Positions 4,179 to 42,591 of a stretch of 60,897 nt of DNA are shown here, piece by piece. A model generated the notes under the pieces. The model saw nothing but the letters and a program-made list of their open reading frames with translations. It made no database searches and had not been told where the DNA came from. Every line of letters starts with the position of its first letter. Position 1 is the stretch's first letter. This DNA is from Myxococcaceae bacterium (GTDB taxonomy: Bacteria; Myxococcota; Myxococcia; Myxococcales; Myxococcaceae), in contig JBGALX010000012.1 of the NCBI GenBank assembly GCA_044223505.1, positions 218,174 through 279,070 of the forward strand, written 5' to 3'. The position numbers and the translations under genes were made by a program.

Positions 4179-6320
4179 TCACGGGCTGATGGTGAGGCGG
4201 ATGTAGTTGACGTCGAGGCTGTCGACGAACGTGGTGCCGCCGCCGTGTGGTGCGACGGCGATCTCGTTCACGCCGCCCGAGTAGCTGAACGCCGCGGTCG
4301 AGGGCATCACCAGCGAGCTCGCGAGCCAGCTGGCGCTGCTGATCGTCTGGTAGCTCGCGTGCAGGTTCGCCATGGGGCTGAGCGCGGCGCGGAACAGGTC
4401 CGTCGGGCCGGCCGCCGGAAGACCGCGCAGCCTGACGCGATACCCGAGCGTCACCGAGCGCTGGCCGGTGAACTGGTCCAGCTTGAACTGGAAGCCCGCG
4501 TAGCCCTGGCCGCCGTTGTGCGGGACGGTCCAGTAATACGGCCAGGTGTTCGTCGCGTCGCGGCTCACCGGAGCGAGGGTCGTGCCGCCGGTGATCGCGA
4601 ACCCGGTCGCCTGCGTCGGGTAGCTCAAGAGCTGCGTGTTGTTCGTGAAGTAGAGGAGGCTGCCGTTCACGCCGTCGCCGTTCGGCATCACGCACATCGT
4701 CGGCGACGTGGGGATGACGGTGATGCCGCAGACGGCCCGGCACGCTCCGTCGGTGCACATCTGGAAGGCGTTGCACGACGACGTCGTCCACGCACCGTTG
4801 GAGCACGTCTGAACCTGGGTCGGAGAGCCGGCGACGCAGCGCGTGGGCATCGGGCACGGGGTGGTCGTGACGGTGATGCAGCGCACGACGCTCCAGGGGT
4901 CGCCGGCCGAGGCGGTGCCGTTGCGGCTGCGGTAGCAGTAGGTGCCTGCGGGCCTGCCGGTGAAGCTGAACACGGCGGGCGAGCCGCTGTTCTGCGACTG
5001 CGCGACCGGCGACGTGAAGGACATGTTGTCGTCCTCCTCGAGCACGTTGAAGGTCGAGCAGATGGAAGCGGTGCAGGTGACGGTCACGCTGTAGCTGCCG
5101 GTCGTGGAGCCCGTCGGGACCGAGACGGTCGTCGCCGGCGGGCGCGGCTCCAGCGCGATGTTGACGGTGCGCGCCTGCGTCATGCTCACGGTGCAGCTCG
5201 TCTGAGTCGGGCTGACGGCGGCGCAGCCGGACCATGAGGCCACCTGCGAGCCGGCGTCGGGGGCCACGGTGATCGTGACCATCGCGCCGCTCGGGTATGC
5301 CTCGGAGCAGTCGGTGCCGCAGTTGATCCCGGTCGCGGTGACGACGCCTGTGCCCGCGCCCGCCTTCACGATCGTGAGCAGGAAGGTCGGAGCCGTGATC
5401 GTGGCGCTGGCGGTATTCGAGTACGCCGAGTCACCCACCGCGTTCGTCGCGCGCACGCGGAAGGCGTACGCACCCGCGCCGACCGACGGCGCCGTGTGCA
5501 TCGTCGCGCCCGCCGCGGGCTGCGCGATCTCGACGAACGCGCCGCCCGCGAAGCTCTGCTCGAGCTTGAAGCCGAGCTCGTTGTTCGAGTTGTCGCTCCA
5601 GCTCAGCGTGATGCTGGTCGTACCCGCGCTCGCCACGAGGTTGCTCGGCGGTGCGGGCGGCTGCGGCGCGGCCGGCACCGTGACGGAGGCGACGTTGCTG
5701 TACGCCGAAACGCCGGTGCCCGAGACCGCGCGGACGCGGTACCAGTAGCTGGTGGCGGGCAGCACGCTGGTGTCGGCCTCGTTCGAGATGCCGGCCACCG
5801 GGCTCGACACGAGCGCGAACGGGCCGGTCGCCGCGGTTGCGCGCTCGAGCTCGAAGCCGGTCTCGTCGTTCGACGGGTGAGACCAGCTGAGCAGCACGAC
5901 GGTGCTCGTCATGGCGGTCGCCGTCAGCTGCGTCGGCGCGGCCGGGCCGGTCATGGCGCTGCCGCCTGCGGTCGCCATTCCGCCTGCGGTCGCCATTCCG
6001 CCTGCGGTCGCCGTTCCGCCCGCGGTCGCCATTCCGCCTGCGGTCGCCGTTCCGCCTGCGGTCGCCGTTCCGCCTGCGGTCGCCATTCCGCCTGCGGTCG
6101 CGATTCCGCCCGCGCTCGCCATTCCGCCCGCCGCTCCGTTGCCGCCTCCGGCGCCGCTCGGCTTGTGCTCCTCGCACATGCCGCCGCGGCAGGTCAGCCC
6201 CTGGTCGCAGCTCAGACCCTGCGTGCAGGCACAGCCCTCACTTCCGACGGGGCACGGCGTGCCACACGACGTGGCGACCAACAGCGAGGCGGCGAGCACG
6301 GCAAGATGACGGGCAGTCAT
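4179..6320 (-). CDS. Large secreted multidomain protein (714 aa): signal peptide, Cys-rich module, Gly/Ala/Thr heptad-repeat linker, two FN3 domains, an InlB-B-repeat-like beta-sandwich domain and a Cys-containing C-terminal domain.
   Basis: Internal ATG at 6320 gives MTARHLAVLAASLLVATSCG. The linker (GGMATAGGTATAGG)n is encoded by a 21-nt tandem repeat. FN3 motifs LSWSHPSNDETGFELER and LSWSDNSNNELGFKLEQ are present, as is a GINCGTDCSEAY...WSGC motif typical of Listeria-Bacteroides / InlB-B-type repeats. Confidence 0.75.
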   Translation of the reverse strand: MTARHLAVLAASLLVATSCGTPCPVGSEGCACTQGLSCDQGLTCRGGMCEEHKPSGAGGGNGAAGGMASAGGIATAGGMATAGGTATAGGTATAGGMATAGGTATAGGMATAGGMATAGGSAMTGPAAPTQLTATAMTSTVVLLSWSHPSNDETGFELERATAATGPFALVSSPVAGISNEADTSVLPATSYWYRVRAVSGTGVSAYSNVASVTVPAAPQPPAPPSNLVASAGTTSITLSWSDNSNNELGFKLEQSFAGGAFVEIAQPAAGATMHTAPSVGAGAYAFRVRATNAVGDSAYSNTASATITAPTFLLTIVKAGAGTGVVTATGINCGTDCSEAYPSGAMVTITVAPDAGSQVASWSGCAAVSPTQTSCTVSMTQARTVNIALEPRPPATTVSVPTGSTTGSYSVTVTCTASICSTFNVLEEDDNMSFTSPVAQSQNSGSPAVFSFTGRPAGTYCYRSRNGTASAGDPWSVVRCITVTTTPCPMPTRCVAGSPTQVQTCSNGAWTTSSCNAFQMCTDGACRAVCGITVIPTSPTMCVMPNGDGVNGSLLYFTNNTQLLSYPTQATGFAITGGTTLAPVSRDATNTWPYYWTVPHNGGQGYAGFQFKLDQFTGQRSVTLGYRVRLRGLPAAGPTDLFRAALSPMANLHASYQTISSASWLASSLVMPSTAAFSYSGGVNEIAVAPHGGGTTFVDSLDVNYIRLTISP
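5961..6135. repeat. In-frame 21-nt tandem repeat (about 8 copies) encoding the heptad (A)GG(M/T)ATA linker of the FN3 protein.
   Basis: Directly visible: ccgcctgcggtcgccattccg repeated head-to-tail with single-base variants (att/gtt). Confidence 0.85.
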
Positions 6321-6346
6321 TGTGGTTCTCCTGCGGGGTTGGGGTT

Positions 6347-7117
6347 TCAGAACGAAGCGGCGAGGCCGACGGACCCGCCGTTGCCGCTGACCGAAACGAC
6401 GGGCGCGATACGAAGACGGCTCTGCTCGCGCGCGTCGTGCACCTCGGCGGCGCTGTCGGCCTGCGCGGCGGCGACGAAGCCGTCGATCGCGAAGAACGCC
6501 ATCGACATCGACGACAGGCCCTGCGTCATGAACGGGCCGTACGGGAGGCGCAGGCCGAACGCGCCGAGCACGAGCTGGCTGGTGCCCGACACGAGCGAGA
6601 GCACGTAGGTGAGCCAGCCGAGCGCCCGGCTGCCGCCGCTGCCGGTGATGTTGTTGGCGTCGCGCGCCGAGCCCGCGCCGCCCGCGACGATGGGCGCCAT
6701 GATCACGCCCGTGCCGTGCAGCGCGAGCCGGAGCGGCAGCTGCACCGACGTCTCGTCGAGGAACAGCTCGTTGAACGCCGTCGCGCCGGCCAGGGTGCCC
6801 GCGAACACGAGGCCCATCACCGCGGCGCCGCGCGCCCAGCCGGCGGTCGGCCGCGGCTCGCTGCGCTCGAGCTCGATCACCGGCACCTGCACGATCGGCG
6901 CGACCGCAGCGACCGGCGAGACGAGCGGAGCGGCCGGCAGGCACTCGCCGTTCGCCGTGCAGGTCTCGCCTGCGGCGCACAGCGGGTTGCACGCCGACAC
7001 GCACTGGGCCGCGATGCACACGAAGCCGCTGCGGCAGCCCGGGAAGCACGCGTCGGCCTGGGCGGCGGCGGCGACCGGGAGGATGAAGGCGACGAGACCG
7101 GCGGAGAGCTTGATCAT
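6347..7117 (-). CDS. Secreted protein with a Cys-rich N-terminal module and a Gly/Ala-rich C-terminal region ending in Phe (putative outer-membrane beta-barrel), 256 aa.
   Basis: Internal ATG at 7117 gives MIKLSAGLVAFILPVAAAAQA (signal peptide). It has 10 Cys in the first 60 mature residues, alternating hydrophobic/Gly stretches and a C-terminal ...LAASF (aromatic terminal residue typical of OMPs). Confidence 0.55.
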   Translation of the reverse strand: MIKLSAGLVAFILPVAAAAQADACFPGCRSGFVCIAAQCVSACNPLCAAGETCTANGECLPAAPLVSPVAAVAPIVQVPVIELERSEPRPTAGWARGAAVMGLVFAGTLAGATAFNELFLDETSVQLPLRLALHGTGVIMAPIVAGGAGSARDANNITGSGGSRALGWLTYVLSLVSGTSQLVLGAFGLRLPYGPFMTQGLSSMSMAFFAIDGFVAAAQADSAAEVHDAREQSRLRIAPVVSVSGNGGSVGLAASF

Positions 7118-7249
7118 GGCGGCCGACAGAGCAGCCGCTGTGCCCCGCGTTTGATTCGCCGGGTCGCGCACTTGGCGCGCGCGGCGTGGGACCGGAAGCG
7201 TCCATGAACTGTTCAGCCCCGGGTGTGCGGCGCTGTACTATTCGCCTCG

Positions 7250-20642: not shown

Positions 20643-20646
20643 GGCG

Positions 20647-20925: not shown

Positions 20926-20953
20926 CCCCTCGGTGAGTCGGCGGCGGAGCGTC

Positions 20954-22410: not shown

Positions 22411-22449
22411 CGACGGACCTCTTAACTGATGGGCCCCTCGATGTGACGA

Positions 22450-22785: not shown

Positions 22786-22808
22786 GAGCGCGCGAGCGTG
22801 AGACGCCG

Positions 22809-23903: not shown

Positions 23904-23977
23904 GGCGCGCACGTTACTCGCACGCGCGACGTTGAGCGCGGCTCTCGCACGTGCCTGTCGCCGGGTGGGCTCGCGGG

Positions 23978-24961: not shown

Positions 24962-25038
24962 CGGGCGGGATGACCCCGAAGGAAGAGGTCGAGGGCAGCA
25001 AACCCGAACGGCGCCGCGGGTGCGGCGAGGCGCCTGGC

Positions 25039-25473: not shown

Positions 25474-25519
25474 GGGTCCAAGCTAGACCAGCAGCGAGTC
25501 GCCCCGCAGCCTCGACGCT

Positions 25520-25972: not shown

Positions 25973-26050
25973 AGCGGAGGAAACACTCCTGTACGACGGT
26001 CCGGTTCCGGCTCTAGCGCCGTCGCTCGGGCATGTCGAGCGTGCGGGCGC

Positions 26051-26473
26051 TCAGTGCGCCGGAACCCGCAGCGCGTCGCGCAAGAGCTGCGACGCCAGCG
26101 TGATGTTCCGCTGCCCGTACTGCACGAGCGCGTGCGCCAGCGCGTTCACCGTGAGGCCCTCGTGGCGCATCGACGCCGCCTTGATCACCATCGGCAGGTT
26201 CACGCCGCAGACGACCTCGAGGTTCGCCTTCGCGCACAGCGCCATCGACTCGCGGCACGGCGACCCACCGAACAGGTCGGCCAGCACCAGCACGCCGTCG
26301 CCTTGATCGACGCGCTGCACGGCCTCTTGAATGCGCTCGCGCAGCTGCTCGGCCGACGACCCCGGCTCGACCGAGCACCACGTCACCTGCGCGAGCACAC
26401 CGACGATCTGCTCGGCTGTCGAGAGCATCTCTTGCGCGAGCCTGCCGTGAGTGGCGACGACGAGACCGACCAT
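26051..26473 (-). CDS. PTS mannose-family EIIA component (140 aa).
   Basis: Internal ATG at 26473 gives MVGLVVATHGRLAQEMLSTAEQIVG (IIA-Man phospho-His region ...THG...). Confidence 0.8.
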   Translation of the reverse strand: MVGLVVATHGRLAQEMLSTAEQIVGVLAQVTWCSVEPGSSAEQLRERIQEAVQRVDQGDGVLVLADLFGGSPCRESMALCAKANLEVVCGVNLPMVIKAASMRHEGLTVNALAHALVQYGQRNITLASQLLRDALRVPAH

Positions 26474-26495
26474 CTCGAACCCAAGTATCGCTGAG

Positions 26496-26510
26496 GGCCC
26501 TCGCGTGCAA
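26496..26510 (-). promoter_or_regulatory. Candidate sigma-54 (-24/-12) promoter upstream of the PTS operon.
   Basis: The minus-strand sequence GGTGCACCTGTTGCA has GG-N10-GC spacing with a perfect TTGCA -12 element. It lies about 25 nt upstream of the IIA start. Confidence 0.35.
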
Positions 26511-26549
26511 CAGGTGCACCGCCGACCCCGGCGCGTTAAACACACATTC

Positions 26550-27194
26550 ATGGCTCTGCTCCTGCGCGCCTGGGCCGACTACGTCTGACCCTGGTGCTAC
26601 GTCGGCCAGGTCGTGGCCGAGCGATTCTCGAAGGACTACTCGTTCGACGGAAAGCCTGTGCCCGTCGACTGGCAGCCGTTCCTCTTGCGCCCCGACGCCC
26701 CCCTCGAGGGCTGGGCGCTGCCCGAGCGCATCAAGGCGATGAAGAACCGCCCCGACAACCCGCTGCACCTGCGGGCGAAGCAGCTCGGGCTGCCGCTCGT
26801 CGAGCGCGACTGGATTCCGAATTCGCGCCGCGCCCTCGCCGCCAACGAGTACGTGCGCGAGCTCGGCGGCCTCGAGAAGCTGCACGCGTACCACTCTGCC
26901 GTCAACGCGCGGTACTGGGGCCAGGGCGAAGACCTCTCGAAGCTCGACGTGCTCGAGGCCGCCGCCCGCGACGCCGGCATCGACCCGGCCGGCGTGCGCG
27001 AGGCCGTCGAGAGCGGCACGTACGACCAGCGCATCGACGACGGCATCGCGAAGGCGAACGCGATGGGCATTCACGCGGTGCCGACGTACGTCTTCTTCGA
27101 CGGCGAGCGGCCGATCGGCGCGATTCAGGGCGCGCAGGAGTACGCCGTCTTCGAGCGCGCCGCCGCCCAGCTCGGGCTCACGCCTCAGCGGTAG
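26550..27194 (+). CDS. DsbA/FrnE-like thioredoxin-fold oxidoreductase with an in-frame TGA at the first Cys position of the CxxC motif (candidate selenoprotein, U-P-W-C).
   Basis: ATG 26550 gives MALLLRAWADYV, then TGA (26586-26588), then PWCYVGQVVAERF... continuing as track ORF 26613..27194. A 7-bp stem-loop UCGGCCA-GGUCG-UGGCCGA (26602-26620) starts 13 nt after the UGA. If the TGA is a true stop, the remaining ORF lacks the catalytic motif. Confidence 0.55.
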
Positions 27195-27722: not shown

Positions 27723-28517
27723 TTACTTCGACAGCTGGCTCGAGAGCAGCTCGACGCAGCCGGTGACCGCGCGCTGCGCGTTCGACTTCGACGCGTAGGT
27801 CTCGCTGCGGGCGATGATGGCGCCGTTCGCGGCCTTCAGGTGGAAGTAGTACTGGCCGTCGGCCGCCGCGAGCACCGTGTAGCGGGCCGCGATGGCGCCG
27901 TTCGTGTTCACCGAGATGGCGCCGTTCGTCGCCGACGTCTTCGACGCGTACGACTGCGACTGCAGCACGATCTCGCCGTTCAGCGCGCGCACGTGGAAGT
28001 AGTACTTCGAGTCGAGACCCTTGAAGACCTCGAACTTCGCGTCGCCCGTGATGGCCAGGCCCTGCGCCACCGTCTGCTTCACCACCGTCGCCACCGACGT
28101 CATCGCGCGCGTCGCGTTCGACTGGCTCACGTACATCTCGCTCGCCGCCAGAATGTCGCCGTTCGCCGCCGACGCGACCACGAAGTACCAGCTGCCGTCG
28201 CTCGCCTCGCGGAGCAGGTACTTGCTCGCATCCTGGCCGTTCGCCTTCAGCGACTCGATGCCCGACAGCGCGCTCGCCTGCGTCGCGTAGCCCTGCGACT
28301 GCAGCACCTTCTCGCCGTTGCCCGCGAGCAGGTGGAAGTACGTCTTCCCGTCCTTGCCCACGAACGTCTCGAACTTGCCCTTCGCGCTCAGCGCCTCGTC
28401 GTTCACCTGGTACTCGTCGGCAGGCGACCCGACCTCGGTCGTGTCTTCGGCCCCGACGCCGCAGGCAGTGAAGGAGAGCGCGAACAGCGAAACGAGGATT
28501 TTGAAGTTGGAGTTCAT
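27723..28517 (-). CDS. Lipoprotein made of four tandem YegP/DUF1508-like repeats (264 aa).
   Basis: MNSNFKILVSLFALSFTACG has lipobox FTAC. The block KFE(T/V)F(V/K)G.DGK.YFHL.A.NGE.(V/I)L.SQ.Y recurs four times. The K/N/S/Y-rich composition is atypical for this genome. Confidence 0.75.
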   Translation of the reverse strand: MNSNFKILVSLFALSFTACGVGAEDTTEVGSPADEYQVNDEALSAKGKFETFVGKDGKTYFHLLAGNGEKVLQSQGYATQASALSGIESLKANGQDASKYLLREASDGSWYFVVASAANGDILAASEMYVSQSNATRAMTSVATVVKQTVAQGLAITGDAKFEVFKGLDSKYYFHVRALNGEIVLQSQSYASKTSATNGAISVNTNGAIAARYTVLAAADGQYYFHLKAANGAIIARSETYASKSNAQRAVTGCVELLSSQLSK

Positions 28518-28530
28518 GCCGCGGCCTTAC

Positions 28531-28546: not shown

Positions 28547-28627
28547 CCTCTGCCCACACCCGTTTCCAGCCGGTTACGTCACGATGAGTTGCACGCGGCG
28601 CAACAACGAATGTAGAAGCTGCAACGA

Positions 28628-30124
28628 ATGTCGAACACGCTTGAAGAGGAGCTCCACGCCGCGACCGGCATGGAGGGCGTCGCGCGCCGGCTGGTCGAGG
28701 TCGCTTGCGAGCGAACGGGGTCGCGGCACGGCGCGGTGTTTCTGTGGGACGCGAAGCTGAAGGCGCTGACGGTCGACTTCCACGTGGTCGAGGGCGTCAT
28801 CGTGGCGCTGCCCGGGACGGGGGCGGTCTTGCGGCCGCGGCGCGACGGGCGGCCGAGCGGCATCGCGGTGAGCTGCTTCGAGAGCGGGCAGCCGTACGTC
28901 TGCAACGACACCGAGCGCGACCCGAACTACGCGCGCTACTTCCTCGAGGTGGGGTCGGTGCTGGCGGTGCCGATTCCGTACCAGGGCAAGCCGCTGGGCG
29001 TGCTGACGGTGAGCGCGTCGAAGAAGCACGCGTTCGACTCGACGCACGTGGCGGCGCTCGAAGAGGTCGCCGAGGCGAGCGCGAAGTTTCTGCGGCGCGC
29101 GGCGCTCGCGCGCACGGCGAGGGCCGACGGCCGGCCGTTCGTCATCAAGGGGCTGTCGCCGCAGTGGCTCGAGGTCGAGAAGCGGCTCGAGAAGGTGGCG
29201 TCGACCGACGCTCCGGTGCTGGTGACCGGCGAGAGCGGCACCGGCAAGGACCTCGTGTCGCGGGCGATTCACTTCAACAGCCGGCGCGCGGGCAAGCCGT
29301 TCGTGACGGTGAACTGCGCGGCCATCCCCGAGACGCTGCTCGAGAGCGTGCTGTTCGGGCACGTGAAGGGCGCGTTCACCGGCGCGACGTTCAACAAGGT
29401 GGGCGAGTTTCAGAAGGCCCACGAGGGCACGCTGTTCCTCGACGAGCTCGGCGAGCTGCCGCTGATGCTGCAGGCGAAGGTGCTGCGCGCGATCGAGCAG
29501 GGCGAGGTGACTCCGCTCGGGAGCAACGAGGCGCCCGAGCACGTCGACGTGCGGCTCATCTGCGCGACGAACCGCAACCTCGCGCAGATGGCGCACGAGG
29601 GGCGGTTTCGCGAAGACCTCTACTACCGGGTCGGCGTCGTGACCGTCGAGCTGCCGCCGCTGCGCAGCTACAAGGACAACCTCGAGATTCTCTCGCAGGT
29701 GTTCCTGCAGCAGGCGGCGCAGCGGCACGGGCGCAAGGTGTCGCGCATCGCGCGCGAGGCCGTCGACGCGCTGAACGCGTACGACTTTCCCGGGAACGTG
29801 CGCGAGCTGAAGAACGCGCTCGAGCACGCGGTCATCATGTCGGCCGGCGACGAGGTGCGCGCCGAAGACCTGCCTGCCGTGATGCGGGGCGGAGCCGCCG
29901 CCAAGGTCGCTGCGGCGCCGGCTCCCAAGCCGAGCGCTCCGCGGACGCTGGCGCAGCTGCGCGACGAGTGGCTGGCTCCGCACGAGAAGGCGTACGTGCA
30001 GCAGCTGCTCGAGGCGAGCGCCGGCAAGGTCGACGACGCCGCGAAGCGCGCGGGGGTGAACCGCGTGACCTTCTACCGGCTGATGACCAAGCACGGCATC
30101 AAGCTGCGCAAGACGGCGGCCTGA
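28628..30124 (+). CDS. Sigma-54-dependent transcriptional activator with an N-terminal GAF domain (GAF-AAA+-HTH).
   Basis: Motifs GESGTGKD, GAFTGA, and the C-terminal HTH AGVNRVTFYRLM. The N-terminal 160 aa are GAF-like. Confidence 0.85.
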   Translation: MSNTLEEELHAATGMEGVARRLVEVACERTGSRHGAVFLWDAKLKALTVDFHVVEGVIVALPGTGAVLRPRRDGRPSGIAVSCFESGQPYVCNDTERDPNYARYFLEVGSVLAVPIPYQGKPLGVLTVSASKKHAFDSTHVAALEEVAEASAKFLRRAALARTARADGRPFVIKGLSPQWLEVEKRLEKVASTDAPVLVTGESGTGKDLVSRAIHFNSRRAGKPFVTVNCAAIPETLLESVLFGHVKGAFTGATFNKVGEFQKAHEGTLFLDELGELPLMLQAKVLRAIEQGEVTPLGSNEAPEHVDVRLICATNRNLAQMAHEGRFREDLYYRVGVVTVELPPLRSYKDNLEILSQVFLQQAAQRHGRKVSRIAREAVDALNAYDFPGNVRELKNALEHAVIMSAGDEVRAEDLPAVMRGGAAAKVAAAPAPKPSAPRTLAQLRDEWLAPHEKAYVQQLLEASAGKVDDAAKRAGVNRVTFYRLMTKHGIKLRKTAA

Positions 30125-33146: not shown

Positions 33147-33439
33147 GCGCTCTCCAGAAGTCGCTTCAGGTCGCCGACCGGGGCCTTCTGAAGCTGTATG
33201 AGAATTGCCGGGTGGCCATCGACGTGCGGAGTCGTGAAGCAGTACTTCGGCTCCGTTCGCAGCAGCAGCTCCTCCGCCTCGACCGGCCCGCGCACGCCGA
33301 GCACCACGCCTTTCGGCGCCGAGTCCCTCGGTGCCTCGAAGCCCGACTTGACCAGCGGGCGCTCCCAGGCCGCGAGCTTCATCTCTACGCGCCCCTTGCG
33401 CCGACCCTTCTCGCGCTCGGCCTCGCGGATGCCGTTCAT
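33131..33439 (-). CDS. Small hypothetical protein (about 102 aa).
   Basis: MNGIREAEREKGRRKGRVEMKLAAWERPLVKSGF... has protein-like composition with high GC3. It overlaps the start of the downstream lipoprotein gene by 16 nt. Confidence 0.35.
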   Translation of the reverse strand: MNGIREAEREKGRRKGRVEMKLAAWERPLVKSGFEAPRDSAPKGVVLGVRGPVEAEELLLRTEPKYCFTTPHVDGHPAILIQLQKAPVGDLKRLLESACEQR

Positions 33440-33480
33440 GATGGGCGTGAAGTGGGACCCGTTTGGCCACTTTTTCGAAG

Positions 33481-34266
33481 TCACTTCTTCTTCTTCTCGT
33501 CGAACGGCACCGTCGTGACCTGTGCCGAGCGGATCTCGATCGCGACGGTCTTCGCCTTGCCCTTCTTCGGCTCGAGCTTGAGCTGGTACTTGCCCGGCGC
33601 GAGCGGCATGTTGCGCAGCGGAGTGACGCCGAGCTCCTTGCCGTCTTTGCCGACGGTGCTCACCTTCGTGCCGGGGTCGGCGGTGATGTTGAGGAAGCCG
33701 GACTCGGGCGCCGGAGGCAGCTCTTTCAGCGTGACCTGCAGCGACTTCGCGTCGAGCAGCACGGTGACGACGCGGTCTTCCCAGCTGCACATCAGCGTGA
33801 CGGTGAGCTTCACCTTCGACTTCGGAGTCGCCGGCCCGACGAGCGCGACGAGCTCGGCGCCGTCGGTCTTCACCTCTTCGGTGCCGCCCTCTTCGACCGA
33901 GCGCACCTTGCGGTACTCGATCTTCGGCCCGTTCGCCTTCGCGCCGAGCTTCAGCTCGATGCGCTGCTTCTTCTTGTCCTTCACCGCCCTCGCCTTGCCG
34001 GTGAGCACGGTCGAGACGTCGGCCGGGCACTTGGGCTTCTCGGGCTCGGGCGCGGGCGGCGCGGCGGCGGGCTCCGGTGCCGGTGCGGGTGCCGGCGCGG
34101 TCGGCGCGGCGTTCTTCGGCTTCGGAGGCCCCGGCGGCTCGGGCGGCCCGCCGGTGTAGCCCTCGGGCGGGCGAATCGGCTTGTCGGGCTGCGGCCCGAC
34201 GGGATCGTCACACGACGCCAGCGCGAGCGCGGCTGCCGCGATGCCGAGAACCGAGAGGCGCCCCAT
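33481..34266 (-). CDS. PEGA-domain lipoprotein with a Pro-rich linker and Lys-rich C-terminus (261 aa).
   Basis: MGRLSVLGIAAAALALASCDD has lipobox LASC. A PEPPGPPKPK...APAPAPAPEP linker. PEGA-type motif GVTPLRNMPLAPGKYQLKLEP. Confidence 0.7.
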   Translation of the reverse strand: MGRLSVLGIAAAALALASCDDPVGPQPDKPIRPPEGYTGGPPEPPGPPKPKNAAPTAPAPAPAPEPAAAPPAPEPEKPKCPADVSTVLTGKARAVKDKKKQRIELKLGAKANGPKIEYRKVRSVEEGGTEEVKTDGAELVALVGPATPKSKVKLTVTLMCSWEDRVVTVLLDAKSLQVTLKELPPAPESGFLNITADPGTKVSTVGKDGKELGVTPLRNMPLAPGKYQLKLEPKKGKAKTVAIEIRSAQVTTVPFDEKKKK

Positions 34267-34293
34267 CGGGCCGGAGCGTAGAGCGGTGCACCG

Positions 34294-34779
34294 TCACGCG
34301 CTACGTTTTGCAGGCGCCAGGGCGTCGGCCACGAACCGCTCGATGTGGCTCACGGCGCCGTCGGCCTCGAGGGTCGGGTCGTGCTCGACGAGCCACGCGA
34401 CCGCCTCGTCGACCGAGCGGAAGGCCCGGTGCGGGCTCGACGGCATCATGAGGCTCAGCCCCGCGAAGAACGTGCGCGCCAGCATCGCCTTCACCCCCGA
34501 CGTCGCGATGACGAGCGCCGTGCCGCGCACGTGCGCCTGAAAGCGCTTCATCGCCATGATCGAGGCCTGCCGCAGCTCTTCGCTCGGCACTCCCGTCGAT
34601 TGGCCCGTGAGCACGCCGATGGCCGTGATGCGCCCGTGCTGCGCGATCACCTTCGCCTGCACTTCGTTCACGTGCTCGAGCAGCTGCGGCGTGATGGTGC
34701 CCCGCCACACGCTGATCAACACGTTGCCGTACCGCCCGACCTTGAGGCCAGGCCACTCTCCCAACACCTCGACCATCAC
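34294..34779 (-). CDS. Hypothetical cytoplasmic protein (161 aa), possibly STAS/SpoIIAA-like.
   Basis: MMVEVLGEWPGLKVGRYGNVLISVWRG... The start has GTG then ATG. GGGAGGG lies 5 nt upstream. No firm family assignment. Confidence 0.5.
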   Translation of the reverse strand: MMVEVLGEWPGLKVGRYGNVLISVWRGTITPQLLEHVNEVQAKVIAQHGRITAIGVLTGQSTGVPSEELRQASIMAMKRFQAHVRGTALVIATSGVKAMLARTFFAGLSLMMPSSPHRAFRSVDEAVAWLVEHDPTLEADGAVSHIERFVADALAPAKRSA

Positions 34780-34789
34780 GCCCTCCCGT

Positions 34790-34963
34790 CTTTCTTGGTC
34801 GGGCTGCGCTGCTCGTCAGGACCTCAGACGGTGCTGCTGTCCGAGGTCCACACTCGCGGTCGCGCATCCCTCCCGGCTTTCTTGGTCGGGCTGCGCTGCT
34901 CGTCAGGACCTCAGACGGTGCTGCTGTCCGAGGTCCACACTCGCGGTCGCGCATCCCTCCCGG
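34790..34963. repeat. Perfect 2 x 87-bp tandem duplication in the 5' leader of gene 34294..34779. Each copy contains an SD-like GGGAGGG, an ATG and a 7-bp inverted repeat GGACCTC...GAGGTCC.
   Basis: Copies at 34790-34876 and 34877-34963 are identical. A partial third junction (ccctcccg) precedes copy 1. Confidence 0.9.
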
Positions 34964-34972
34964 TGACTGCGG

Positions 34973-37033
34973 CTACGCCGCCTGAATCAGCCGCAGCGGC
35001 CGGAACTTCGCGTGCCGCCGCTGGCGCACCACATCGATCAGCATCCTCCCTGCCCAGCGATACACGTTGAACTCCTTCACCTGCGAGCGCATCGCGCGCA
35101 TGCGCGCCTTCTGCTCGCTCCGCTTCATCTCGATCGCCGTCCGCATCGCGTCGGCTGCCTCGTCGAGGTCGTACGGGTTCACCACCAGCGCCTCCGTCAG
35201 CTCGCGCGCCGCGCCCGTGAACGACGACAGCACCAGCACCCCCTGCTCGTCGTCACGCGCCGCGACGAACTCCTTCGCGACCAGGTTCATGCCGTCGTGC
35301 AGGCTCGACACGTAGCAGAGGTCTGCCGCCCGGTAGCACTTGAACACCGTCGGCGGCTCGTGGTGCGCGCGCAGCAGCTTCACCGGCGGCACCTTCGCTC
35401 CGGCGAAGCGCTCGTTCACGCGCGCCACCTGCGCCTCGACGCGGTCCTGCAGGTCTTTGTACTGGGGGATGACCGTTCGGCTCGGCGCCGCCAGCTGCAC
35501 GAAGCAGAACTTGCCCACGAGGCTCGGCGTGCGTTCGAGCAGGCGCTCGACGGCGAGCACGCGCTCCTCGAAGCCCTTCGTGTAGTCGAGGCGATCGACG
35601 CCGACGCCCAGCAGCGTGTCTTCGGGCAGCCCGAGCTCGGCGCGCACCTGCTTGCGGCACACGTCGACCGGAGGCGACTGCTGCACCCACCGGTTCGGCC
35701 ACTCGACGCTGATGGGGTAAGGCCGCACGAGCGTCTGCCGCCCGCGGCGCACCACCGCGTTGCTCTCGCGATCGAGCCGGGCCTCGAGGAAGCGGTCGCA
35801 CGCCTCGAGGAAGTTGTTGCAGTGCTGCTGCGTGTGGAAGCCGACGATGCTCGCGCCGAGCGTGCCCTCGAGCAGCTCGTCGCGCCACGGGCAGATGCCG
35901 AAGCGCTCGGCCGACGGCCAGGGAATGTGCCAGAACGCCACCACCGTCGCGCCCGGCAGCCGGTCGGTGATCATCTTCGGCAGCAGCGCGAAGTGGTAGT
36001 CCTGCACCAGCACCACCGGGTCCTTCACCCGCACCTCTTCGAGCAGCGCGTCGGCGAACCGCTCGTTCACCTCGCGGTACTTCTGAAAGTCCTGCGCGCG
36101 GAAGTCGGGGCGCGTGTGCACGAGGTGGCACAGCGGCCAGAGGCCCTCATTCGAGAAGCCGTAGTAGTAGCCGGCCTCTTCTTCGGGAGTCAGCCACACG
36201 CGGCGCAAGAGATAGGCGTCTTCGCCCGGAGGCACGCGCAGACGGCCTCGCGCGTCTGCGGTCTCGCGGTCGGCCGAGCCCGACGCCTGCGCGATCCACG
36301 TGCCGCCGCACGCGCGCATCACCGGCTCGAGCGCCGTGACGACGCCGCTCGCCGGGTGCAGCACCTTGATCTCGCCGTTCTGGCTCGAGCGCGTGTGAAT
36401 GTACGGCTCGCGGTTCGACACGACCGTCACGCTGCTGCCCTTGAGCTGCGCGCCGACGAGCTGCCGCAGGCGGCCCTCCGTCCACTGGCCGTCGAGGGCG
36501 AGCTCCTCGCGCTCGGCGCGCAGATCGTCGAGCAGCCTTCTCTCGGTGAGGCGCTCGATGACGAGCGTCGCGCCGGCGATCAAGAGCGCGCCCAGGCCGA
36601 ACAGCACCCACAGCCAGCGGCCGACCGCGGCACGGCGGGCCTCGATGGCGCTCGTCTCGCGCACCAGCACCAGCGTGGCGTCAGAGACGTCGACGGTGAC
36701 CGCCTCTTTCGGCAGCGCGTCGGTCGCGCAGTTGAACACCTCGGGCAGGTCGCCCGCGGCGGCGCGCAGCGTGCCGTCGTGCCCGCAGATGGCGGCCGCG
36801 AGGATGTTCTCTTTCCGCGCGAGCTCGGTGAGCGACTCCTGCAGCTCAGCGGTGCTGACGGCGTTCGCGATCGTCGGGGCGAACGCACGGCCGCGCGCCC
36901 GGAGGTCGTCTCCGTCCCACGCCCAGAGGCGCCCGGCGAGCACCTGGCTCGCGACGAACGTCAGCGCGAACGACACGAGAACGATGACGAGCGGAGCGGC
37001 CAGCGCACGTCTCAACGTGGGCGAGATCTGCAC
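34973..37033 (-). CDS. otsA: Trehalose-6-phosphate synthase (GT20, OtsA-like) with an about 200-aa N-terminal extension containing two TM helices flanking a periplasmic-like domain.
   Basis: The C-terminal 480 aa carry GT20 hallmarks (FWHIPWP, LWPLCH, VQDYHF, GVDRLDYTKG, YYRAADLCYVSSLHDGMNL). N-terminus MQISPTLRRALAAPLVIVLVSFALTFVA plus a second helix WLWVLFGLGALLIAGATLVI. Confidence 0.8.
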   Translation of the reverse strand: MQISPTLRRALAAPLVIVLVSFALTFVASQVLAGRLWAWDGDDLRARGRAFAPTIANAVSTAELQESLTELARKENILAAAICGHDGTLRAAAGDLPEVFNCATDALPKEAVTVDVSDATLVLVRETSAIEARRAAVGRWLWVLFGLGALLIAGATLVIERLTERRLLDDLRAEREELALDGQWTEGRLRQLVGAQLKGSSVTVVSNREPYIHTRSSQNGEIKVLHPASGVVTALEPVMRACGGTWIAQASGSADRETADARGRLRVPPGEDAYLLRRVWLTPEEEAGYYYGFSNEGLWPLCHLVHTRPDFRAQDFQKYREVNERFADALLEEVRVKDPVVLVQDYHFALLPKMITDRLPGATVVAFWHIPWPSAERFGICPWRDELLEGTLGASIVGFHTQQHCNNFLEACDRFLEARLDRESNAVVRRGRQTLVRPYPISVEWPNRWVQQSPPVDVCRKQVRAELGLPEDTLLGVGVDRLDYTKGFEERVLAVERLLERTPSLVGKFCFVQLAAPSRTVIPQYKDLQDRVEAQVARVNERFAGAKVPPVKLLRAHHEPPTVFKCYRAADLCYVSSLHDGMNLVAKEFVAARDDEQGVLVLSSFTGAARELTEALVVNPYDLDEAADAMRTAIEMKRSEQKARMRAMRSQVKEFNVYRWAGRMLIDVVRQRRHAKFRPLRLIQAA

Positions 37034-37131
37034 GGGCGATGCGATAACGACGTCACATTTTCGCGTGCAGCGGCGTTACCGGGCCGACACCCTTCCCGTG
37101 GTAGCCTGCGTGTCGCGTCGGGGCCGGTGAA

Positions 37132-38775
37132 GTGGAGCCAAGCGTGAGCTGGGTAGCCCTCGTCGGACCCGAGATCGAAGAGAACCTGTCGCTGCGCTAC
37201 CTCGCGAGCGCGCTGAAGCGGGCGGGCTACGACTGCGAGCTCCTCGCGTACAACGGCGGCCCCGCGCTGCCGGGCATCGTGCAGCGCATCGTCTCGACCG
37301 ACTCGCCGCCGCTGCTCGTCGGCATCTCGATGGCGTTTCAGTGGCGCGCCCCCGACATGCTCGCGCTCGCCGTCGCGCTCAAAGAGGCGGGCTACCGCGG
37401 CCACGTCACCGCGGGCGGCCACTTCGCGACGTTCGCCGCGAAGGACATGCTGAACGACTTCCCCGAGCTCGACTCCATCTGCCGGCAGGAGGCCGAAGAG
37501 ACGCTCGTCGAGCTGTGCCGCACCATCGAGGCGGGCCGCGACTGGTCGGCGCTCGCCGGCCTCGCGGTGCACACGAGCGAGGGCCCGCGCATCAACGCGA
37601 TGCGCTCGGCGCCCGAGCTGTCGGGGCTCGCGTGGCCCGACCGGCGCGGGGCTCCGGCCGAGTGCTTCGGGCACCGCATCGCTCCGTTGGTGTCGACGCG
37701 AGGCTGCTACGCGAACTGCAGCTTCTGCTGCATCGCCGCGTGGCACGAGATGGCGCTGCCCGGGAAGCGGTACCGCGAGCGGCCGCTCGAAGACGTCGCC
37801 GACGAGATGGCGGCCGAGCACTTCGGGCGCGGCATCGAGATCTTCGTCTTCCACGACGACAACTTCTTCCTGCCCTCGGGCGTGAAGAACGCCGAGCGGC
37901 TGAACCGGCTCGCCGACCTGCTCGAGGCGCGCGGCGTGAAGCGCTTCGCGACCGTCGTGAAGGCGAGGCCGACCGACGTGCAGCCGAAGGCCTTCGAGAC
38001 GCTCGTGAAGCGGCTGCACTGCATTCGCTGCTACGTCGGCATCGAGACCGACGCCGACCAGGGGCTGCAGACGCTCAACCGCTGGGCCCGCTCGAAGCAC
38101 AACTGGGAGGCCATGGAGCGCATCGACGCCCTCGACCTCTACACCTGCTTCAACATGCTGCTGTTCGACCCCGACACCACGCTCGAGAGCGTCGAAGACA
38201 ACCTCGACTTCATGGAGGCGCACGCCCACTGCCCGTTCAACTTCGGGCGCACCGAGCTGTACGCGGGCACTCCGCTCTTGCACCGCATGCAGGCCGAGGG
38301 GCGCGCGCGCGGCGACTGGCTGCAGTGGGACTACAGCCTGAAGGACTCGGGCATCGAGCGCGTGTTCCAGATGGCCGCGAGCGCGTTCTACGAGCGCAAC
38401 TTCGCCGTCGATGGCCTCGCGAACACGATGATGTCGACGCGCTTCGACATCGAGGTGGTGAAGCGCTTCCACGCCGAGCAGCTGCGGCCCGAGTGGCCGG
38501 CCGCCGCGAAGGAGCTGTCGAGGAAGCTCGGTCGTGACAGCGTCGCCGGCATGCGCCGGCTGCTCGCGCACGTGCGGGCTCGCGAAGACGGCGACGCCGA
38601 GCTCGCGCAGGAGCTCGCGCTCGGGCTGCGCGAGACCGAGCAGCGGCTGAAGGGTGAGGCCCGCGCGCTCGCGCGCGAGGTGGCCGGCGTGGTCGGAGGA
38701 GCTCCGCTCACGGACGTGGGCGACAAGGTGGCGACGCCGCTGCAGCGCGCGCGCTTCGAGGAGGCACGGTCATGA
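37132..38775 (+). CDS. B12-binding domain radical SAM protein (class B rSAM), 547 aa.
   Basis: N-terminal cobalamin-binding Rossmann pattern (VALVGPEIEENLSLRYLASALKRAGYDCELL) and the radical SAM cluster motif CYANCSFC (CxxxCxxC). Confidence 0.85.
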   Translation: MEPSVSWVALVGPEIEENLSLRYLASALKRAGYDCELLAYNGGPALPGIVQRIVSTDSPPLLVGISMAFQWRAPDMLALAVALKEAGYRGHVTAGGHFATFAAKDMLNDFPELDSICRQEAEETLVELCRTIEAGRDWSALAGLAVHTSEGPRINAMRSAPELSGLAWPDRRGAPAECFGHRIAPLVSTRGCYANCSFCCIAAWHEMALPGKRYRERPLEDVADEMAAEHFGRGIEIFVFHDDNFFLPSGVKNAERLNRLADLLEARGVKRFATVVKARPTDVQPKAFETLVKRLHCIRCYVGIETDADQGLQTLNRWARSKHNWEAMERIDALDLYTCFNMLLFDPDTTLESVEDNLDFMEAHAHCPFNFGRTELYAGTPLLHRMQAEGRARGDWLQWDYSLKDSGIERVFQMAASAFYERNFAVDGLANTMMSTRFDIEVVKRFHAEQLRPEWPAAAKELSRKLGRDSVAGMRRLLAHVRAREDGDAELAQELALGLRETEQRLKGEARALAREVAGVVGGAPLTDVGDKVATPLQRARFEEARS

Positions 38776-39269
38776 GCGACAAGAAGCTGATGAACGAGCA
38801 GCTGCCGGCGCCGCAGAAGAGCGAGCCCGCCGCGAGCGCGCGCGAGCGCGTGCTCTCGCACATGAAGAGCCTCGTGAAGGTCGGGGCGGCGTCGGTGGTG
38901 GTGAGCGCGTGCACTCCGTTCGCGGTGGTCGACCCCCTGCCGCCTCCGGCGCGGTGCAAGACGAACAACGACGTGCTGAGCGAGCTGAGCGCGGTCGCGA
39001 CGCGCGCCGACGGCGGCGCGGTCATCACGCTCGCCATCAACGCGAAGATCGATGAAGAGAGCGGCGTCTTGTTGATCTCGGCACCGATCAACGACGGCGG
39101 CACGTCGATGGACGTCGTGGAGCTGAACGGCAAGCGGCTGGTCGCGAACATCACGTCGTCGGCGCCGACGGTGTTTCTCACCCTGCACCTGACCTGCGAC
39201 GGCGCCAACCGCAACGTGAGCGTGCTCATCGACACCGCGACGCTGAACGTCACGCTCAGCAAGCCGTAG
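38772..39269 (+). CDS. Hypothetical protein (165 aa; alternative start at 38862 would give a 135-aa lipoprotein), start-stop coupled (ATGA) to the B12-rSAM gene.
   Basis: Its ATG overlaps the rSAM TGA. An internal signal-anchor/lipobox-like segment MKSLVKVGAASVVVSACTPF is present. No family recognised. Confidence 0.45.
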   Translation: MSDKKLMNEQLPAPQKSEPAASARERVLSHMKSLVKVGAASVVVSACTPFAVVDPLPPPARCKTNNDVLSELSAVATRADGGAVITLAINAKIDEESGVLLISAPINDGGTSMDVVELNGKRLVANITSSAPTVFLTLHLTCDGANRNVSVLIDTATLNVTLSKP

Positions 39270-39277
39270 CAGGCGGC

Positions 39278-41800
39278 TCAGGCGCGCAGGTGGCGCGCGA
39301 TGCCGAGCGTCGTCTCGAGATCGACGGGCTTCACGAGGTGATGCTGGAACCCCGCGGCGGCGGTGCGAGCCTTGTCCGACGCCTGGCCGTAGCCGGTGAC
39401 GGCGACGAGCACCACGCGCTGGTCGAGCTCGCGCAGCCGCGCCGCGACCTCGTAGCCGTCCATCGCGGGCAGGCCGAGGTCGAGAAACGCGATCTCGGGC
39501 TTGAGCCCCTCGGCGAGGTCGATCGCGTGAGGCCCGTCGTTCGCGACCCTCACGTCGTGCCCATCGGCGCGCAGCCCCTCGGCGAGCAGCTCGGCGGCGT
39601 CGACGTTGTCGTCCACCACCAGCACGCGGCGCCGCTGATCATCGGTGCGCGGCGGCCTCGGCGCCGAAGGCCGCGGCTGCAGCTGCGCTCCGGTCGCGAG
39701 CGGCAGCTCGAGGGTGAACGTCGAGCCCTGCTTCAGCCCCGCGCTCTCGGCCTTCGCCGTGCCCTGGTGCATCTCGGCGAAGCGCTTCACCAGCGCGAGG
39801 CCGAGCCCGAGGCCGCCCGCGCTGCTGCGCTGCTCGGTGGGCGCCTGCGCGAACGCCTCGAACAGCCGCGGCAGCTGCTCGGGCGCGATGCCGTCGCCGT
39901 CGTCTTTCACCGTGAGCACCACGCGGCCGTCGTGCGCCGCCGCGCGGACCTCGACGTGCCCGCCGTCGTCGGTGTAGCGCGCCGCGTTCGTGAGCAGGTT
40001 CGACACGGCCTGCGTGAGCCGGTGCTCGTCGCCGAACAGCACGAGGCCGCGCTCGGGGACGTCGATGAGCAGCTGGTGCCGCTTCTGCTCGAACAGCGGC
40101 GACGCCATCTCGACGGCCTTCGTCACGATGCCGTGCAGCTCGACGCGTGTGCGGTTGAGCTCGATCTTCCCCCGCGCGATGCGCGACACGTCGAGCAGGT
40201 CGTCGACCATGCGCATCAGGTGCTTCACCTGGCGGTAGATGATCTTCCGCTCGCGCAGCAGCGCGGGCTCCTTCTTGCGGTCGAGCACCTCGAGCGCGAT
40301 GACGATCGGCGCGAGCGGGTTGCGCAGCTCGTGCCCCAGCATCGCCAGGAACTCGTCTTTCGTCTGGTTCGCAGCCACCGCCGCCTCCTGCGCGGCCCGC
40401 AGCTCGGCCATGTTCGACTCGGCCGCCTCGCGCAGCTTCCGCTCGGAGTCGAGCAGCAGCGCCCGCTCGAGCGCCTGCGCGCAGTGCCACGCGAGCACCG
40501 AGAGCTGCTCGAGCTCCTGGCCCGAGAGGCGCCGCGGCTCGCTGAAGCTCACGCCCAGCACACCGAGCGGCCCGTCGCGCCCGAGCATCGGCAGCGCGGC
40601 GAGCGCCGAATGGCGAACGTGCTCGGGCGAGACCGTCGGGTACCTCTGAAACAGCTGCTCCCGCGACTCGAGCACCACCGGCTGGCGCGTACGCCAGGCG
40701 TCGGCGGCCGGCGTCGCCGCGTCGGAGCGCATGCGCTGATAGTGCGCCACCGTCGGAGCCGAGTGACCCATCGAGCCACGCACGTCGAGCGACGTGCCGT
40801 CGGGGCTCGGCAGGAAGACGTTCGCGGCCGACGCGCCGACCGCCTCGGCCCCCTCGTGCACCACCGCGCGCAGCACCTCGTCGACGCCGCTCGCCCGGGC
40901 CAGCGCCGCGTTCAGCCGTGCGACCGCCTCGAGGCGCTGCTCGCTCGCGCGCCGCATCGCGTCTGCGACCGACACCGAGCGCGCGAGCATCACGGCCATC
41001 GCCGCGCTCACCACCGTGAGGCAGACGACGAGCAGCGCAGTGCCCGTGGGCGTGTCGACGACTCCGAGCGACTGGAGGCCGAGGCGCAGGTACCCGACCG
41101 CGACGGGCAGGCCGAGCACCATCGGAATCGCGCGGCGCAGCATGTAGCCGCCCGCGTCGCGCCGCGTGAACGCCTGACCGAGGCCGAGCTCGGGGCGCTG
41201 GAAGAGGGCGGCGACTCCGATGGCCGTCGCGAGCATCGCCGTGAGCCCCGCCATGCGAATGTACGAGGTCGGCTGGTAGAGCAGGGTCGCGTCGTAGAGG
41301 TAGCCGACGATGGCGCTGAAGCCGGTCAAGAAGACGCCGATCGAGAAGGCCTGGCTGAGCAGCACGGCGGTGCGACCACGGCGCGAGGCGAAGATCGACA
41401 GGCCCGCCAAGGTCAGCGCGAGCGCGGTGTTCGGCGCCATGCGGTTCGGGTGCAGCACCGCCTCGGCGAGCGCGCTGTGCTCGCGCTGCACGAGCTCGTC
41501 GATGCCGAGGTCGACGGCCGTGGCGTACTCGAGCAGCGTGAGCGCTCCGATGCCCGCAGCCAGCGCGGCGAGCACGTCGGCGAGCCGCGGCACGCGACGG
41601 CCGAGCCGCAGCACGAGCGCCGCCCCGATGAGCGTGAACGCCAGCGCCGTGTTCGCCTTCATGCGGTCGGCGACCACCTCTGCTCCGGTGCCGCCCGAGA
41701 GCCAGCAGCTCAGCACGAAGGTCCCGATGACGGCGCAGAAGACACCGATGACGGCCGCTGCCGTGCGTATGCCTTCGTTCGACTCTTCCGGGGGAGACAT
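39278..41800 (-). CDS. Membrane hybrid sensor histidine kinase / response regulator (multi-TM sensor domain - GAF - HisKA - HATPase_c - REC), 840 aa.
   Basis: About 8 predicted TM helices at the N-terminus, a GAF-like region, H-box HELRNPLAPIV, G-box DDGDGI...GGLGLGL, and a receiver with VLVVDDN...IAFLDLGLPAMDG. Internal ATG at 41800 (MSPPEESNEG). Confidence 0.8.
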   Translation of the reverse strand: MSPPEESNEGIRTAAAVIGVFCAVIGTFVLSCWLSGGTGAEVVADRMKANTALAFTLIGAALVLRLGRRVPRLADVLAALAAGIGALTLLEYATAVDLGIDELVQREHSALAEAVLHPNRMAPNTALALTLAGLSIFASRRGRTAVLLSQAFSIGVFLTGFSAIVGYLYDATLLYQPTSYIRMAGLTAMLATAIGVAALFQRPELGLGQAFTRRDAGGYMLRRAIPMVLGLPVAVGYLRLGLQSLGVVDTPTGTALLVVCLTVVSAAMAVMLARSVSVADAMRRASEQRLEAVARLNAALARASGVDEVLRAVVHEGAEAVGASAANVFLPSPDGTSLDVRGSMGHSAPTVAHYQRMRSDAATPAADAWRTRQPVVLESREQLFQRYPTVSPEHVRHSALAALPMLGRDGPLGVLGVSFSEPRRLSGQELEQLSVLAWHCAQALERALLLDSERKLREAAESNMAELRAAQEAAVAANQTKDEFLAMLGHELRNPLAPIVIALEVLDRKKEPALLRERKIIYRQVKHLMRMVDDLLDVSRIARGKIELNRTRVELHGIVTKAVEMASPLFEQKRHQLLIDVPERGLVLFGDEHRLTQAVSNLLTNAARYTDDGGHVEVRAAAHDGRVVLTVKDDGDGIAPEQLPRLFEAFAQAPTEQRSSAGGLGLGLALVKRFAEMHQGTAKAESAGLKQGSTFTLELPLATGAQLQPRPSAPRPPRTDDQRRRVLVVDDNVDAAELLAEGLRADGHDVRVANDGPHAIDLAEGLKPEIAFLDLGLPAMDGYEVAARLRELDQRVVLVAVTGYGQASDKARTAAAGFQHHLVKPVDLETTLGIARHLRA

Positions 41801-41874
41801 CGTCGGGCTTCGTCCGTACGTAGGGACGCTTGGGCTCCGCACGCAACGGGGCGCGCGGGCGTTACCGGTTGGTA

Positions 41875-42591
41875 ATGGAGGCACCCCGCGCAATGCTCGC
41901 GGCGGGAATGCGCCGGCTCGTGCTCTGCGTGCTGTGGGCGTGCGTCTCGACCGGGCCGCAGCAGGTGACGGTCGCGGCCGGGCCGTGGCGCGCCACGTAC
42001 CGCGACTGGAGCGGCGTCGACGTGTGCGAGACCGAGCCCTCGTGGCTGCGCGAGGAGCTCGACGAGGCGAACGACGTGCTCGAGCGCTTCACGGCGCACG
42101 GCGGCGCGTGGCGCGACGACGAGCTGCCCGTGCTCGAAGAGGCTTCGCGCGCGCTGCCGCCGCTGGTCGAGGCGCACGCCAAGAACCTCGAGGCGCTGCA
42201 GCACTGCCCCGGCGAGCCGCACGCGACGGCGGTCGAGCGCGGGCTCAAGCTCGTGGCCGCGGCGCGCGACGGGCTCGACGGCGCGTCGAAGCTGCTCCGC
42301 TTCTCGAGCCACCGGCGGGGCATCGAGGCGTGGCGCAAGTCACTCGAGACCGAGAGAGACGAGGCGCGCGAGCGCTGCGCCGCCGACGCGGGCGCGCTGC
42401 CTGTCATCTACTTCGCGTTCGGCGACGAGCTCGCCGGCACGACGTGGCTGTTCTGCGATGGCGCCGTCGTGAACGCGCCGCTGACCGGCGGCCTGAGGCT
42501 CGAGGGCGGCGACGCCAGCGTGCAGGCGCGGTACTTCGAGCAGTCGCGCGTGCACCCGCCGGGCCTCGTGAAGCGCCCGCCCGTCAGGTGA
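41875..42591 (+). CDS. Secreted hypothetical protein (about 238 aa).
   Basis: MEAPRAMLAAGMRRLVLCVLWACVSTGPQ is a signal peptide, and there are several conserved-looking Cys. The exact start is uncertain (ATGs at 41875, 41893 and 41908). Confidence 0.45.
   Translation: MEAPRAMLAAGMRRLVLCVLWACVSTGPQQVTVAAGPWRATYRDWSGVDVCETEPSWLREELDEANDVLERFTAHGGAWRDDELPVLEEASRALPPLVEAHAKNLEALQHCPGEPHATAVERGLKLVAAARDGLDGASKLLRFSSHRRGIEAWRKSLETERDEARERCAADAGALPVIYFAFGDELAGTTWLFCDGAVVNAPLTGGLRLEGGDASVQARYFEQSRVHPPGLVKRPPVR

Follow-up and report, generated by a model that had tools for sequence, protein, structure and literature searches.

Between an otsA-like gene and the gene that follows it, a stretch of myxobacterial DNA carries two copies of an 87-bp unit in immediate succession, each with a Shine-Dalgarno-like motif, an ATG and a hairpin. 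The arrangement raises the question of whether the repeat is a regulatory element, a member of a mobile repeat family, an error of assembly or the trace of a recent mutational accident. The stretch that we analysed, called the window throughout, is 60,897 nucleotides (60.9 kb) long and has a GC content of 71%; its closest named relative is a Myxococcaceae MAG.

Anatomy of the array and its flanking genes

In Tandem Repeats Finder the region yields one array, which spans 34781-34963 with a period of 87, 2.1 copies, 98% matches and no indels. Direct comparison shows that 34790-34876 and 34877-34963 are 100% identical, in agreement with the initial annotation, and dinucleotide shuffles of the window yielded no pair like the two 87-nt units. 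The period-87 match resumes leftward for a further 8 nt (34781-34788) past a sole mismatch, t at 34789 against g at 34876. Read on the minus strand, the anatomy is 8-79-8-79-8: the 8-nt direct repeat CGGGAGGG borders each 79-nt core and occurs three times in the array, an identity that would arise by chance with a probability of about 1.5e-5. The order on this strand is TAG, CCGCAGTCA, C, CGGGAGGG, a core ending in AAAGC, CGGGAGGG, a core ending in AAAGA, CGGGAGGG, C, GTG and ATG. The features of the locus are as follows.

34973-37033, minus strand: OtsA-like glycosyltransferase family 20 gene, 686 aa (Pfam Glyco_transf_20, 1.2e-115, residues 201-665); stop TAG at 34973-34975
34964-34972, minus strand: native spacer remnant CCGCAGTCA, directly 3' of the otsA-like stop; GTCAC is common to the spacer of a relative's locus, L004
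34955-34962, minus strand: distal CGGGAGGG arm, a microhomology arm or target-duplication-like sequence; partial third copy that brings the count to 2.1 units
34876-34954, minus strand: distal 79-nt core (ATGCGCGACC...CCAAGAAAGC), with a hairpin of 11-bp stem and 9-nt loop at 34906-34936; not in relatives
34868-34875, minus strand: middle CGGGAGGG arm, at the unit-unit junction
34789-34867, minus strand: proximal 79-nt core, equal to the distal core but for its last base (minus-strand A, 34789); hairpin at 34819-34849
34781-34788, minus strand: proximal CGGGAGGG arm, the working Shine-Dalgarno sequence of the downstream gene; GGAGG lies 5 nt before the ATG at 34776
34294-34776, minus strand: STAS / SpoIIAA-like fold gene, 160 aa; start ATG at 34774-34776 (orthologue alignment, AlphaFold model)

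The core begins with ATGCGCGACC and ends with CCAAGAAAGC. Each unit carries, on the minus strand, the GGGAGGG-ATG motif and the inverted repeat GGACCTC-N17-GAGGTCC that had first drawn attention to it, the latter at plus-strand positions 34819-34849 and 34906-34936. The unit contains an imperfect palindrome of about 75 nt, placed internally and followed by a 12-nt 3' tail. Its GC content is 0.67-0.68, and that of the other intergenic gaps spans 0.61-0.77.

The array lies between the otsA-like stop codon and the next gene, as originally described, yet it is an intercistronic spacer of two same-strand genes, tightly packed in relatives, rather than the 5' leader that had been proposed. The start of the downstream gene also needed revision: three orthologues of its 160-aa product begin MVEVLGEWPG, so the true start is the ATG at 34774-34776 and not the GTG at 34779 that had been assigned. 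The upstream protein belongs to a 90% identity cluster that consists of the window and two relatives only, one member of which carries the name trehalose-6-phosphate synthase. No Pfam family matches its first ~200 residues, which open with a hydrophobic stretch; they may form a membrane-anchored or sensor-type extension, a feature unusual for trehalose-6-phosphate synthases. A gene for a PEGA-domain protein comes after the downstream gene.

The fold assignment of the 160-aa protein draws on a weak, sub-threshold Pfam SpoIIAA-like match (E 6e-4) and on an AlphaFold model of moderate confidence (pLDDT 72) that matches RsfB, the DUF3478 SpoIIAA-like structure 2q3l, RsbS and SpoIIAA. Proteins of this type (160-163 aa) form a very small family, with 6 clusters among 5.8 billion proteins and no Pfam assignment; its members include the proteins encoded at 34294-34776 (minus strand) in the window and in three more distant loci, L005 (1200-1691), L012 (137-628) and L013 (142-633). 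The gene always stands directly 3' of an upstream gene or overlaps it by 4 nt. In L005 the partner is a histidine kinase; the close relatives have the otsA-like gene in this place, and L012 and L013 an ORF that is cut off by the contig end. This arrangement hints that the STAS-fold protein may be a partner-switching-type accessory of the kinase.

Before the repeat is interpreted, its copy number has to be considered, since the assembler may have settled an 87-bp loop arbitrarily, in which case the true number of units would differ. Short-read graph assembly is known to handle perfect short tandem repeats poorly; in addition, the sequence resembles a metagenome-assembled contig, it is known from a single NCBI contig of 279 kb, and the collections hold no conspecific assembly. 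The junction between the units, however, reads AAGAAAGC-CGGGAGGG-ATGCGCG; a locus with one copy could not give rise to it, and some reads must therefore have contained two copies or more. The 8-nt repeat is moreover too short for a graph join, and the single t/g difference separates the end of the proximal unit from the junction. We consider an artefact quite unlikely, and even with a wrong count the insertion relative to the relatives would stand.

Relatives' loci and the proposed origin

The locus was compared with those of relatives. In L001, whose encoded protein is 81% identical (L002 and L003 represent the same lineage), a spacer of 19 nt separates the otsA-like gene from the STAS-fold gene after it, and in L004, with a 77%-identical protein, the same two genes are 30 nt apart. 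When L001 and L004 are aligned with the window, the flanks are colinear; each relative has one (C)GGGAGG, 5-6 nt ahead of the ATG, and lacks the 79-nt core altogether. The Shine-Dalgarno sequence in the window's proximal arm occupies the same relative position as those of L001 and L004. From stop to ATG the window's spacer measures 196 nt, or 22 + 174 (2 x 87); with the 174 nt taken out it reads CCGCAGTCAC-CGGGAGGG-CGTG, a spacer of 22 nt in the relatives' layout.

All four of these loci (L001-L004) thus present an empty site, without the 79-nt core, at the orthologous junction, and the alleles of the relatives have zero copies of the unit, not one. The comparison speaks against conservation: the element is absent from all relatives compared. 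We also considered that the core might be a decayed local duplication and rejected this origin, as neither the flanking genes nor the loci of the relatives contain anything similar to the core.

The direction of the change can be read from more distant homologues. In L005, L012 and L013 (55-56% identity) the STAS-fold gene overlaps its upstream gene by 4 nt, and a short or absent spacer is therefore likely to be ancestral and the long one derived in the window's lineage. The opposite polarity, in which the unit is ancestral and was deleted from the relatives between the 8-nt repeats, has some appeal: sequence between short direct repeats is easily deleted, duplications that arose through microhomology are readily reversed (bioRxiv 10.64898/2026.02.28.708716), and the three close lineages are about equidistant, so that the polarity is not strictly fixed. 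The distant homologues with their 4-nt gene overlap and no spacer argue against it, however. With two of three genes the window falls together with L001 and L004 falls outside, which makes loss in the relatives less parsimonious than gain in the window; the spacers of L001 and L004 differ, and under that grouping two independent precise losses would be needed. Finally, an arm that is a functional Shine-Dalgarno sequence is more simply explained by target duplication. We regard an ancestral unit as highly improbable.

Our preferred reading, which we think probable, is that the array records a two-step and probably near-neutral accident: an orphan insertion, specific to the lineage and flanked by a repeat derived from its target, followed by a microhomology-mediated tandem duplication. 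In the first step, a 79-nt imperfect palindrome would have inserted at the ribosome-binding site of the downstream gene and would have come to be flanked on both sides by the 8-nt target CGGGAGGG. These flanks could stem from staggered-cut repair, as in a transposition-type target duplication, or from a microhomology-primed templated insertion. The sequence signature points to a second step, in which the 8-nt arms would have mediated a tandem duplication by slippage or unequal exchange. Its product would be arm-core-arm-core-arm, 2 x 87 nt, with one base change since. We infer the order of events, insertion and then doubling, from the sequence. One substitution in 174 nt indicates that the doubling is very recent, as the initial annotation had supposed.

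Microhomology-mediated tandem duplications are frequent in bacteria and readily reversible, and they involve arms of 4-25 bp and segments of about 10-500 bp (bioRxiv 10.64898/2026.02.28.708716). The 8-nt arm and the 87-nt unit fall inside these published ranges; the copies lie head to tail, and the same arm recurs at both outer ends of the array and between the units.

The consequences for the downstream gene are probably slight. Because the arm is itself the Shine-Dalgarno sequence, the gene would have kept an intact ribosome-binding site 5 nt upstream of its true ATG, while the tight packing with the upstream gene would have been lost and the mRNA between the genes would have gained two hairpins. 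Judging by the absence of regulatory signals, the effect is likely to be near-neutral, or else to shift relative expression slightly. The array accordingly offers a clean natural example of a short target-flanked insertion that doubled through 8-nt arms, and of an insertion into a ribosome-binding site that is tolerated as the arm rebuilds the site. Beyond the locus it has little meaning, and it would become more interesting only if copies of the core turned up elsewhere in the genome.

A separate difference from the relatives lies on the other side of the otsA-like gene. A gene for a GAF-HisKA-HATPase-REC hybrid kinase is directly upstream of the otsA-like gene in L001 (351-2918) and L004 (1-1257), and its counterpart in the window (39278-42088, minus strand) is ~2.2 kb away from otsA. 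The intervening ~2.2-kb stretch (37034-39277) holds a further ORF and, on the opposite strand, a gene for a B12-binding radical SAM protein (37132-38775). By this comparison it appears to be a second lineage-specific insertion or rearrangement at the same locus.

RNA structure, regulatory signals and upstream start codons

We next consider whether the units could function as RNA. In the mRNA sense a single unit is predicted to fold into a long imperfect hairpin of -43.7 kcal/mol, with a z of about -3.3 against its own dinucleotide shuffles; the longer hairpin of the dimer is simply one palindrome paired with the other. Only in the sense RNA is the 11-bp stem complete, since one of its pairs, G-U in the RNA, corresponds to an A-C mismatch on the other strand. 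Measured against native sequence, this stability is ordinary. Windows of 96 nt that fold at least as stably as the unit make up 30% of all native windows and 10.6% of GC-matched ones, and with 30% of native windows in this 71% GC DNA folding as stably, the hairpin of the unit is not unusual. About 38 hairpins with stems of at least 10 bp occur in the 60.9-kb window.

Known regulatory signals were searched for as well. Nowhere in the window did Rfam give a match at the gathering threshold, and at E <= 10 it returned noise only; the best scores were 21 bits against a threshold of 94 for a miRNA model and 14 against 37 for Hammerhead_II. A hammerhead, suggested by CUGACGA...GAAA and the tandem layout, was rejected: a stem II cannot form, the alignment lacks the GAAA core, stem III is mispaired and the score is 14 bits against 37. 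Neither a sigma-70 promoter nor an intrinsic terminator was found in 33400-37400, and the sigma-54 consensus (-24/-12) has no match within the units. Structure prediction and an Rfam search, both recommended when the repeat was first described, gave weak evidence for a structured RNA: a predicted hairpin of z about -3.3, no Rfam family and an energy ordinary for native windows. The early suggestion of a riboswitch or small RNA fares poorly, with Rfam scores far below threshold, no promoter or terminator and a folding energy ordinary for the genome.

The ATGs within the units bear on translation. They lie 1 nt after GGAGG, a spacing that is poor for initiation, whereas the true ATG lies 5 nt after GGAGG. 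An Arg-rich ORF of 217 codons (34301..34954) has the distal ATG as its first codon and reads on through the downstream gene in a different frame, with no nearby stop after the unit ATGs. The GC3 of this frame is 0.59 within the units, 0.47 over the gene and 0.50 for the ORF as a whole, against 0.93 in the real frame. At 0.47-0.59 versus 0.93 the frame from the unit ATGs is not coding, which bears out the earlier judgement that the ORF is probably not a real protein. A duplicated translational leader or decoy start, also proposed earlier, is contradicted by the 1-nt gap between GGAGG and ATG, the absence of a nearby stop and the absence of the unit from relatives. From their sequence, the extra GGGAGGG-ATG pairs appear to be by-products of the arm and not start sites. 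For annotation, the locus is a warning that Shine-Dalgarno-ATG pairs made by a repeat, and the 217-codon ORF, are not genes, and that GTG 34779 is not a start.

A functional role would nevertheless be conceivable in the operon mRNA, where the units could protect the otsA-like message from 3' exonucleases, uncouple the two genes by serving as a processing site or act as decoy SD/ATG pairs that titrate ribosomes. REP/BIME and ERIC elements alter mRNA stability (E. coli malE-malF, Yersinia ERIC), and the inter-cistron position of the units resembles theirs; the stable sense-strand stem-loop and the G-U pair confined to the sense RNA would also fit such a role. Against it stand the absence of the units from every relative, and hence of conservation, the ordinary energy among native windows with about 38 comparable hairpins in the window, the lack of an Rfam family, and decoy ATGs that are 1 nt from GGAGG in a frame with a GC3 of 0.50-0.59 versus 0.93. 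Partition-function folding of the junction further predicts an SD/AUG accessibility of 0.33, 0.30 and 0.30 with zero, one and two units, so the accessibility of the real Shine-Dalgarno sequence is unchanged in silico. That the copies are perfectly identical is a sign of their recent origin and not of selection. A functional RNA is, in our judgement, improbable.

Some further features of the window deserve mention. At 5962-6155 (minus strand) another tandem repeat, of 18 nt in 9.3 copies with 93% matches, encodes a (GGxATA)n Gly/Ala/Thr linker. It lies in ORF 4179..7205 (minus strand), whose likely start is near MTARHLAVLAASLL; the product is a large secreted protein with a lipoprotein-like signal peptide and a Cys-rich start, and the linker follows directly on these. 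A cluster at 18885-26578 (minus strand) encodes PTS Enzyme I and mannose/sorbose-family IIA, IIB and IIC, and adjoining it are two sigma-54 activators (12309-14252 and 28616-30124) and a protein with four DUF1508 repeats (27723-28526).

Search for further copies and comparison with known systems

If the core belonged to a repeat family, copies should be found at other loci. Within the 60.9-kb window, blastn-short (word size 7) and nhmmer recovered only the two units. A pattern of the hairpin arms with a free loop had no match in 185,579 GTDB species-representative genomes, a set that does not include the source genome. An end-anchored gapped pattern matched 4 times in the GTDB representatives, where ~3.5 matches were estimated by chance, and there was no similarity between the anchors. 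The JGI metagenomes gave 2 pattern matches, both unrelated perfect palindromes, IMG/VR gave no match to the unit, and blastn against plasmids and phages gave none either. The three open frames of the dimer, once translated, had no match at E <= 10 among 5.8 billion proteins. One chance match of the hairpin pattern, at 1030-1115 of the metagenome contig L006, is a long perfect palindrome after a gene end, formed by a run of short repeats of the GACCTCAGAC/GAGGTCTGAGG type; it is unrelated to the unit.

Features of a mobile element were sought in the locus itself. Among the about 35 large ORFs of the window, Pfam identified no transposase, RAYT, integrase or reverse transcriptase. None of the 9 possible phases gives the core complementary ends, so that terminal inverted repeats are lacking. 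The REP/MITE-like family envisaged in the initial annotation finds no support in these searches, which turned up no second locus in the window or in genome, metagenome, virus, plasmid, phage or protein collections.

A mobile element is a rival to our preferred reading. Under it, the core would be a small non-autonomous element (MITE-, REPIN- or ERIC-like) that transposed into the ribosome-binding site and made an 8-bp (or 9-bp) target-site duplication, with the dimer formed by exchange between the target copies. It accounts for the filled site in the window against empty sites in relatives and for the 8-nt target-derived direct repeat, and the unit is small, non-coding and imperfectly palindromic. 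REP-type elements are also known to form hairpins and tandem arrays (PMC3116915). What weighs against it is the absence of terminal inverted repeats in any phase, the palindrome being internal with a 12-nt 3' tail, together with the absence of a second locus from the window and the public genome, metagenome, virus, plasmid, phage and protein collections, and of a transposase, RAYT, integrase or reverse transcriptase gene from the about 35 large ORFs. We hold this explanation to be unlikely. A special case of it, a low-copy mobile element, is the most interesting rival: the core would be a previously undescribed low-copy non-autonomous element of an uncultured Myxococcota lineage, without terminal inverted repeats and with an 8-9-bp target duplication, that had freshly inserted into a ribosome-binding site regenerated in the process and then dimerised. 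We rate this version as less likely still.

Set beside known systems, the array shares features with several of them. With bacterial MITEs it has in common that the unit is small and non-coding, with internal secondary structure, a target direct repeat and an empty site in relatives. Unlike MITEs, it lacks terminal inverted repeats and a related transposase nearby, and further copies are absent from the window and the public collections.

The REP/REPIN/BIME and ERIC- or Correia-type elements are likewise imperfect palindromes in transcribed intergenic spacers that can occur in tandem (PMC3116915). These families comprise tens to hundreds of copies per genome, with conserved end motifs and, in the case of REPINs, a RAYT gene; REPINs are not known to make an 8-bp target duplication. 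The unit differs in having no further copy in the 60.9-kb window, which holds about 40 intergenic gaps, or in the public collections; at the REP densities of E. coli or Pseudomonas, several copies would be expected in 60.9 kb.

Leader peptides or uORFs and tandem riboswitches resemble the array, in which an SD-like motif, an ATG and a hairpin, all present twice, precede a gene. In contrast to leader peptides and uORFs, the array has a 1-nt SD-ATG spacing, no stop for 217 codons and a codon composition unlike that of coding sequence, and in contrast to both leader peptides and tandem riboswitches it is without conservation and without an Rfam match.

With microhomology-mediated tandem duplication the array shares the head-to-tail doubling of a short segment, the same short arm at the ends and the junction, and near-perfect identity of the copies. 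It departs from a plain case in that relatives carry none of the core, for which our preferred reading assumes a separate, earlier insertion. The array is best filed as an ordinary kind of event, the tandem duplication of an orphan, lineage-specific insert with microhomology at its flanks, rather than as a regulatory leader, a riboswitch or a demonstrated repeat family.
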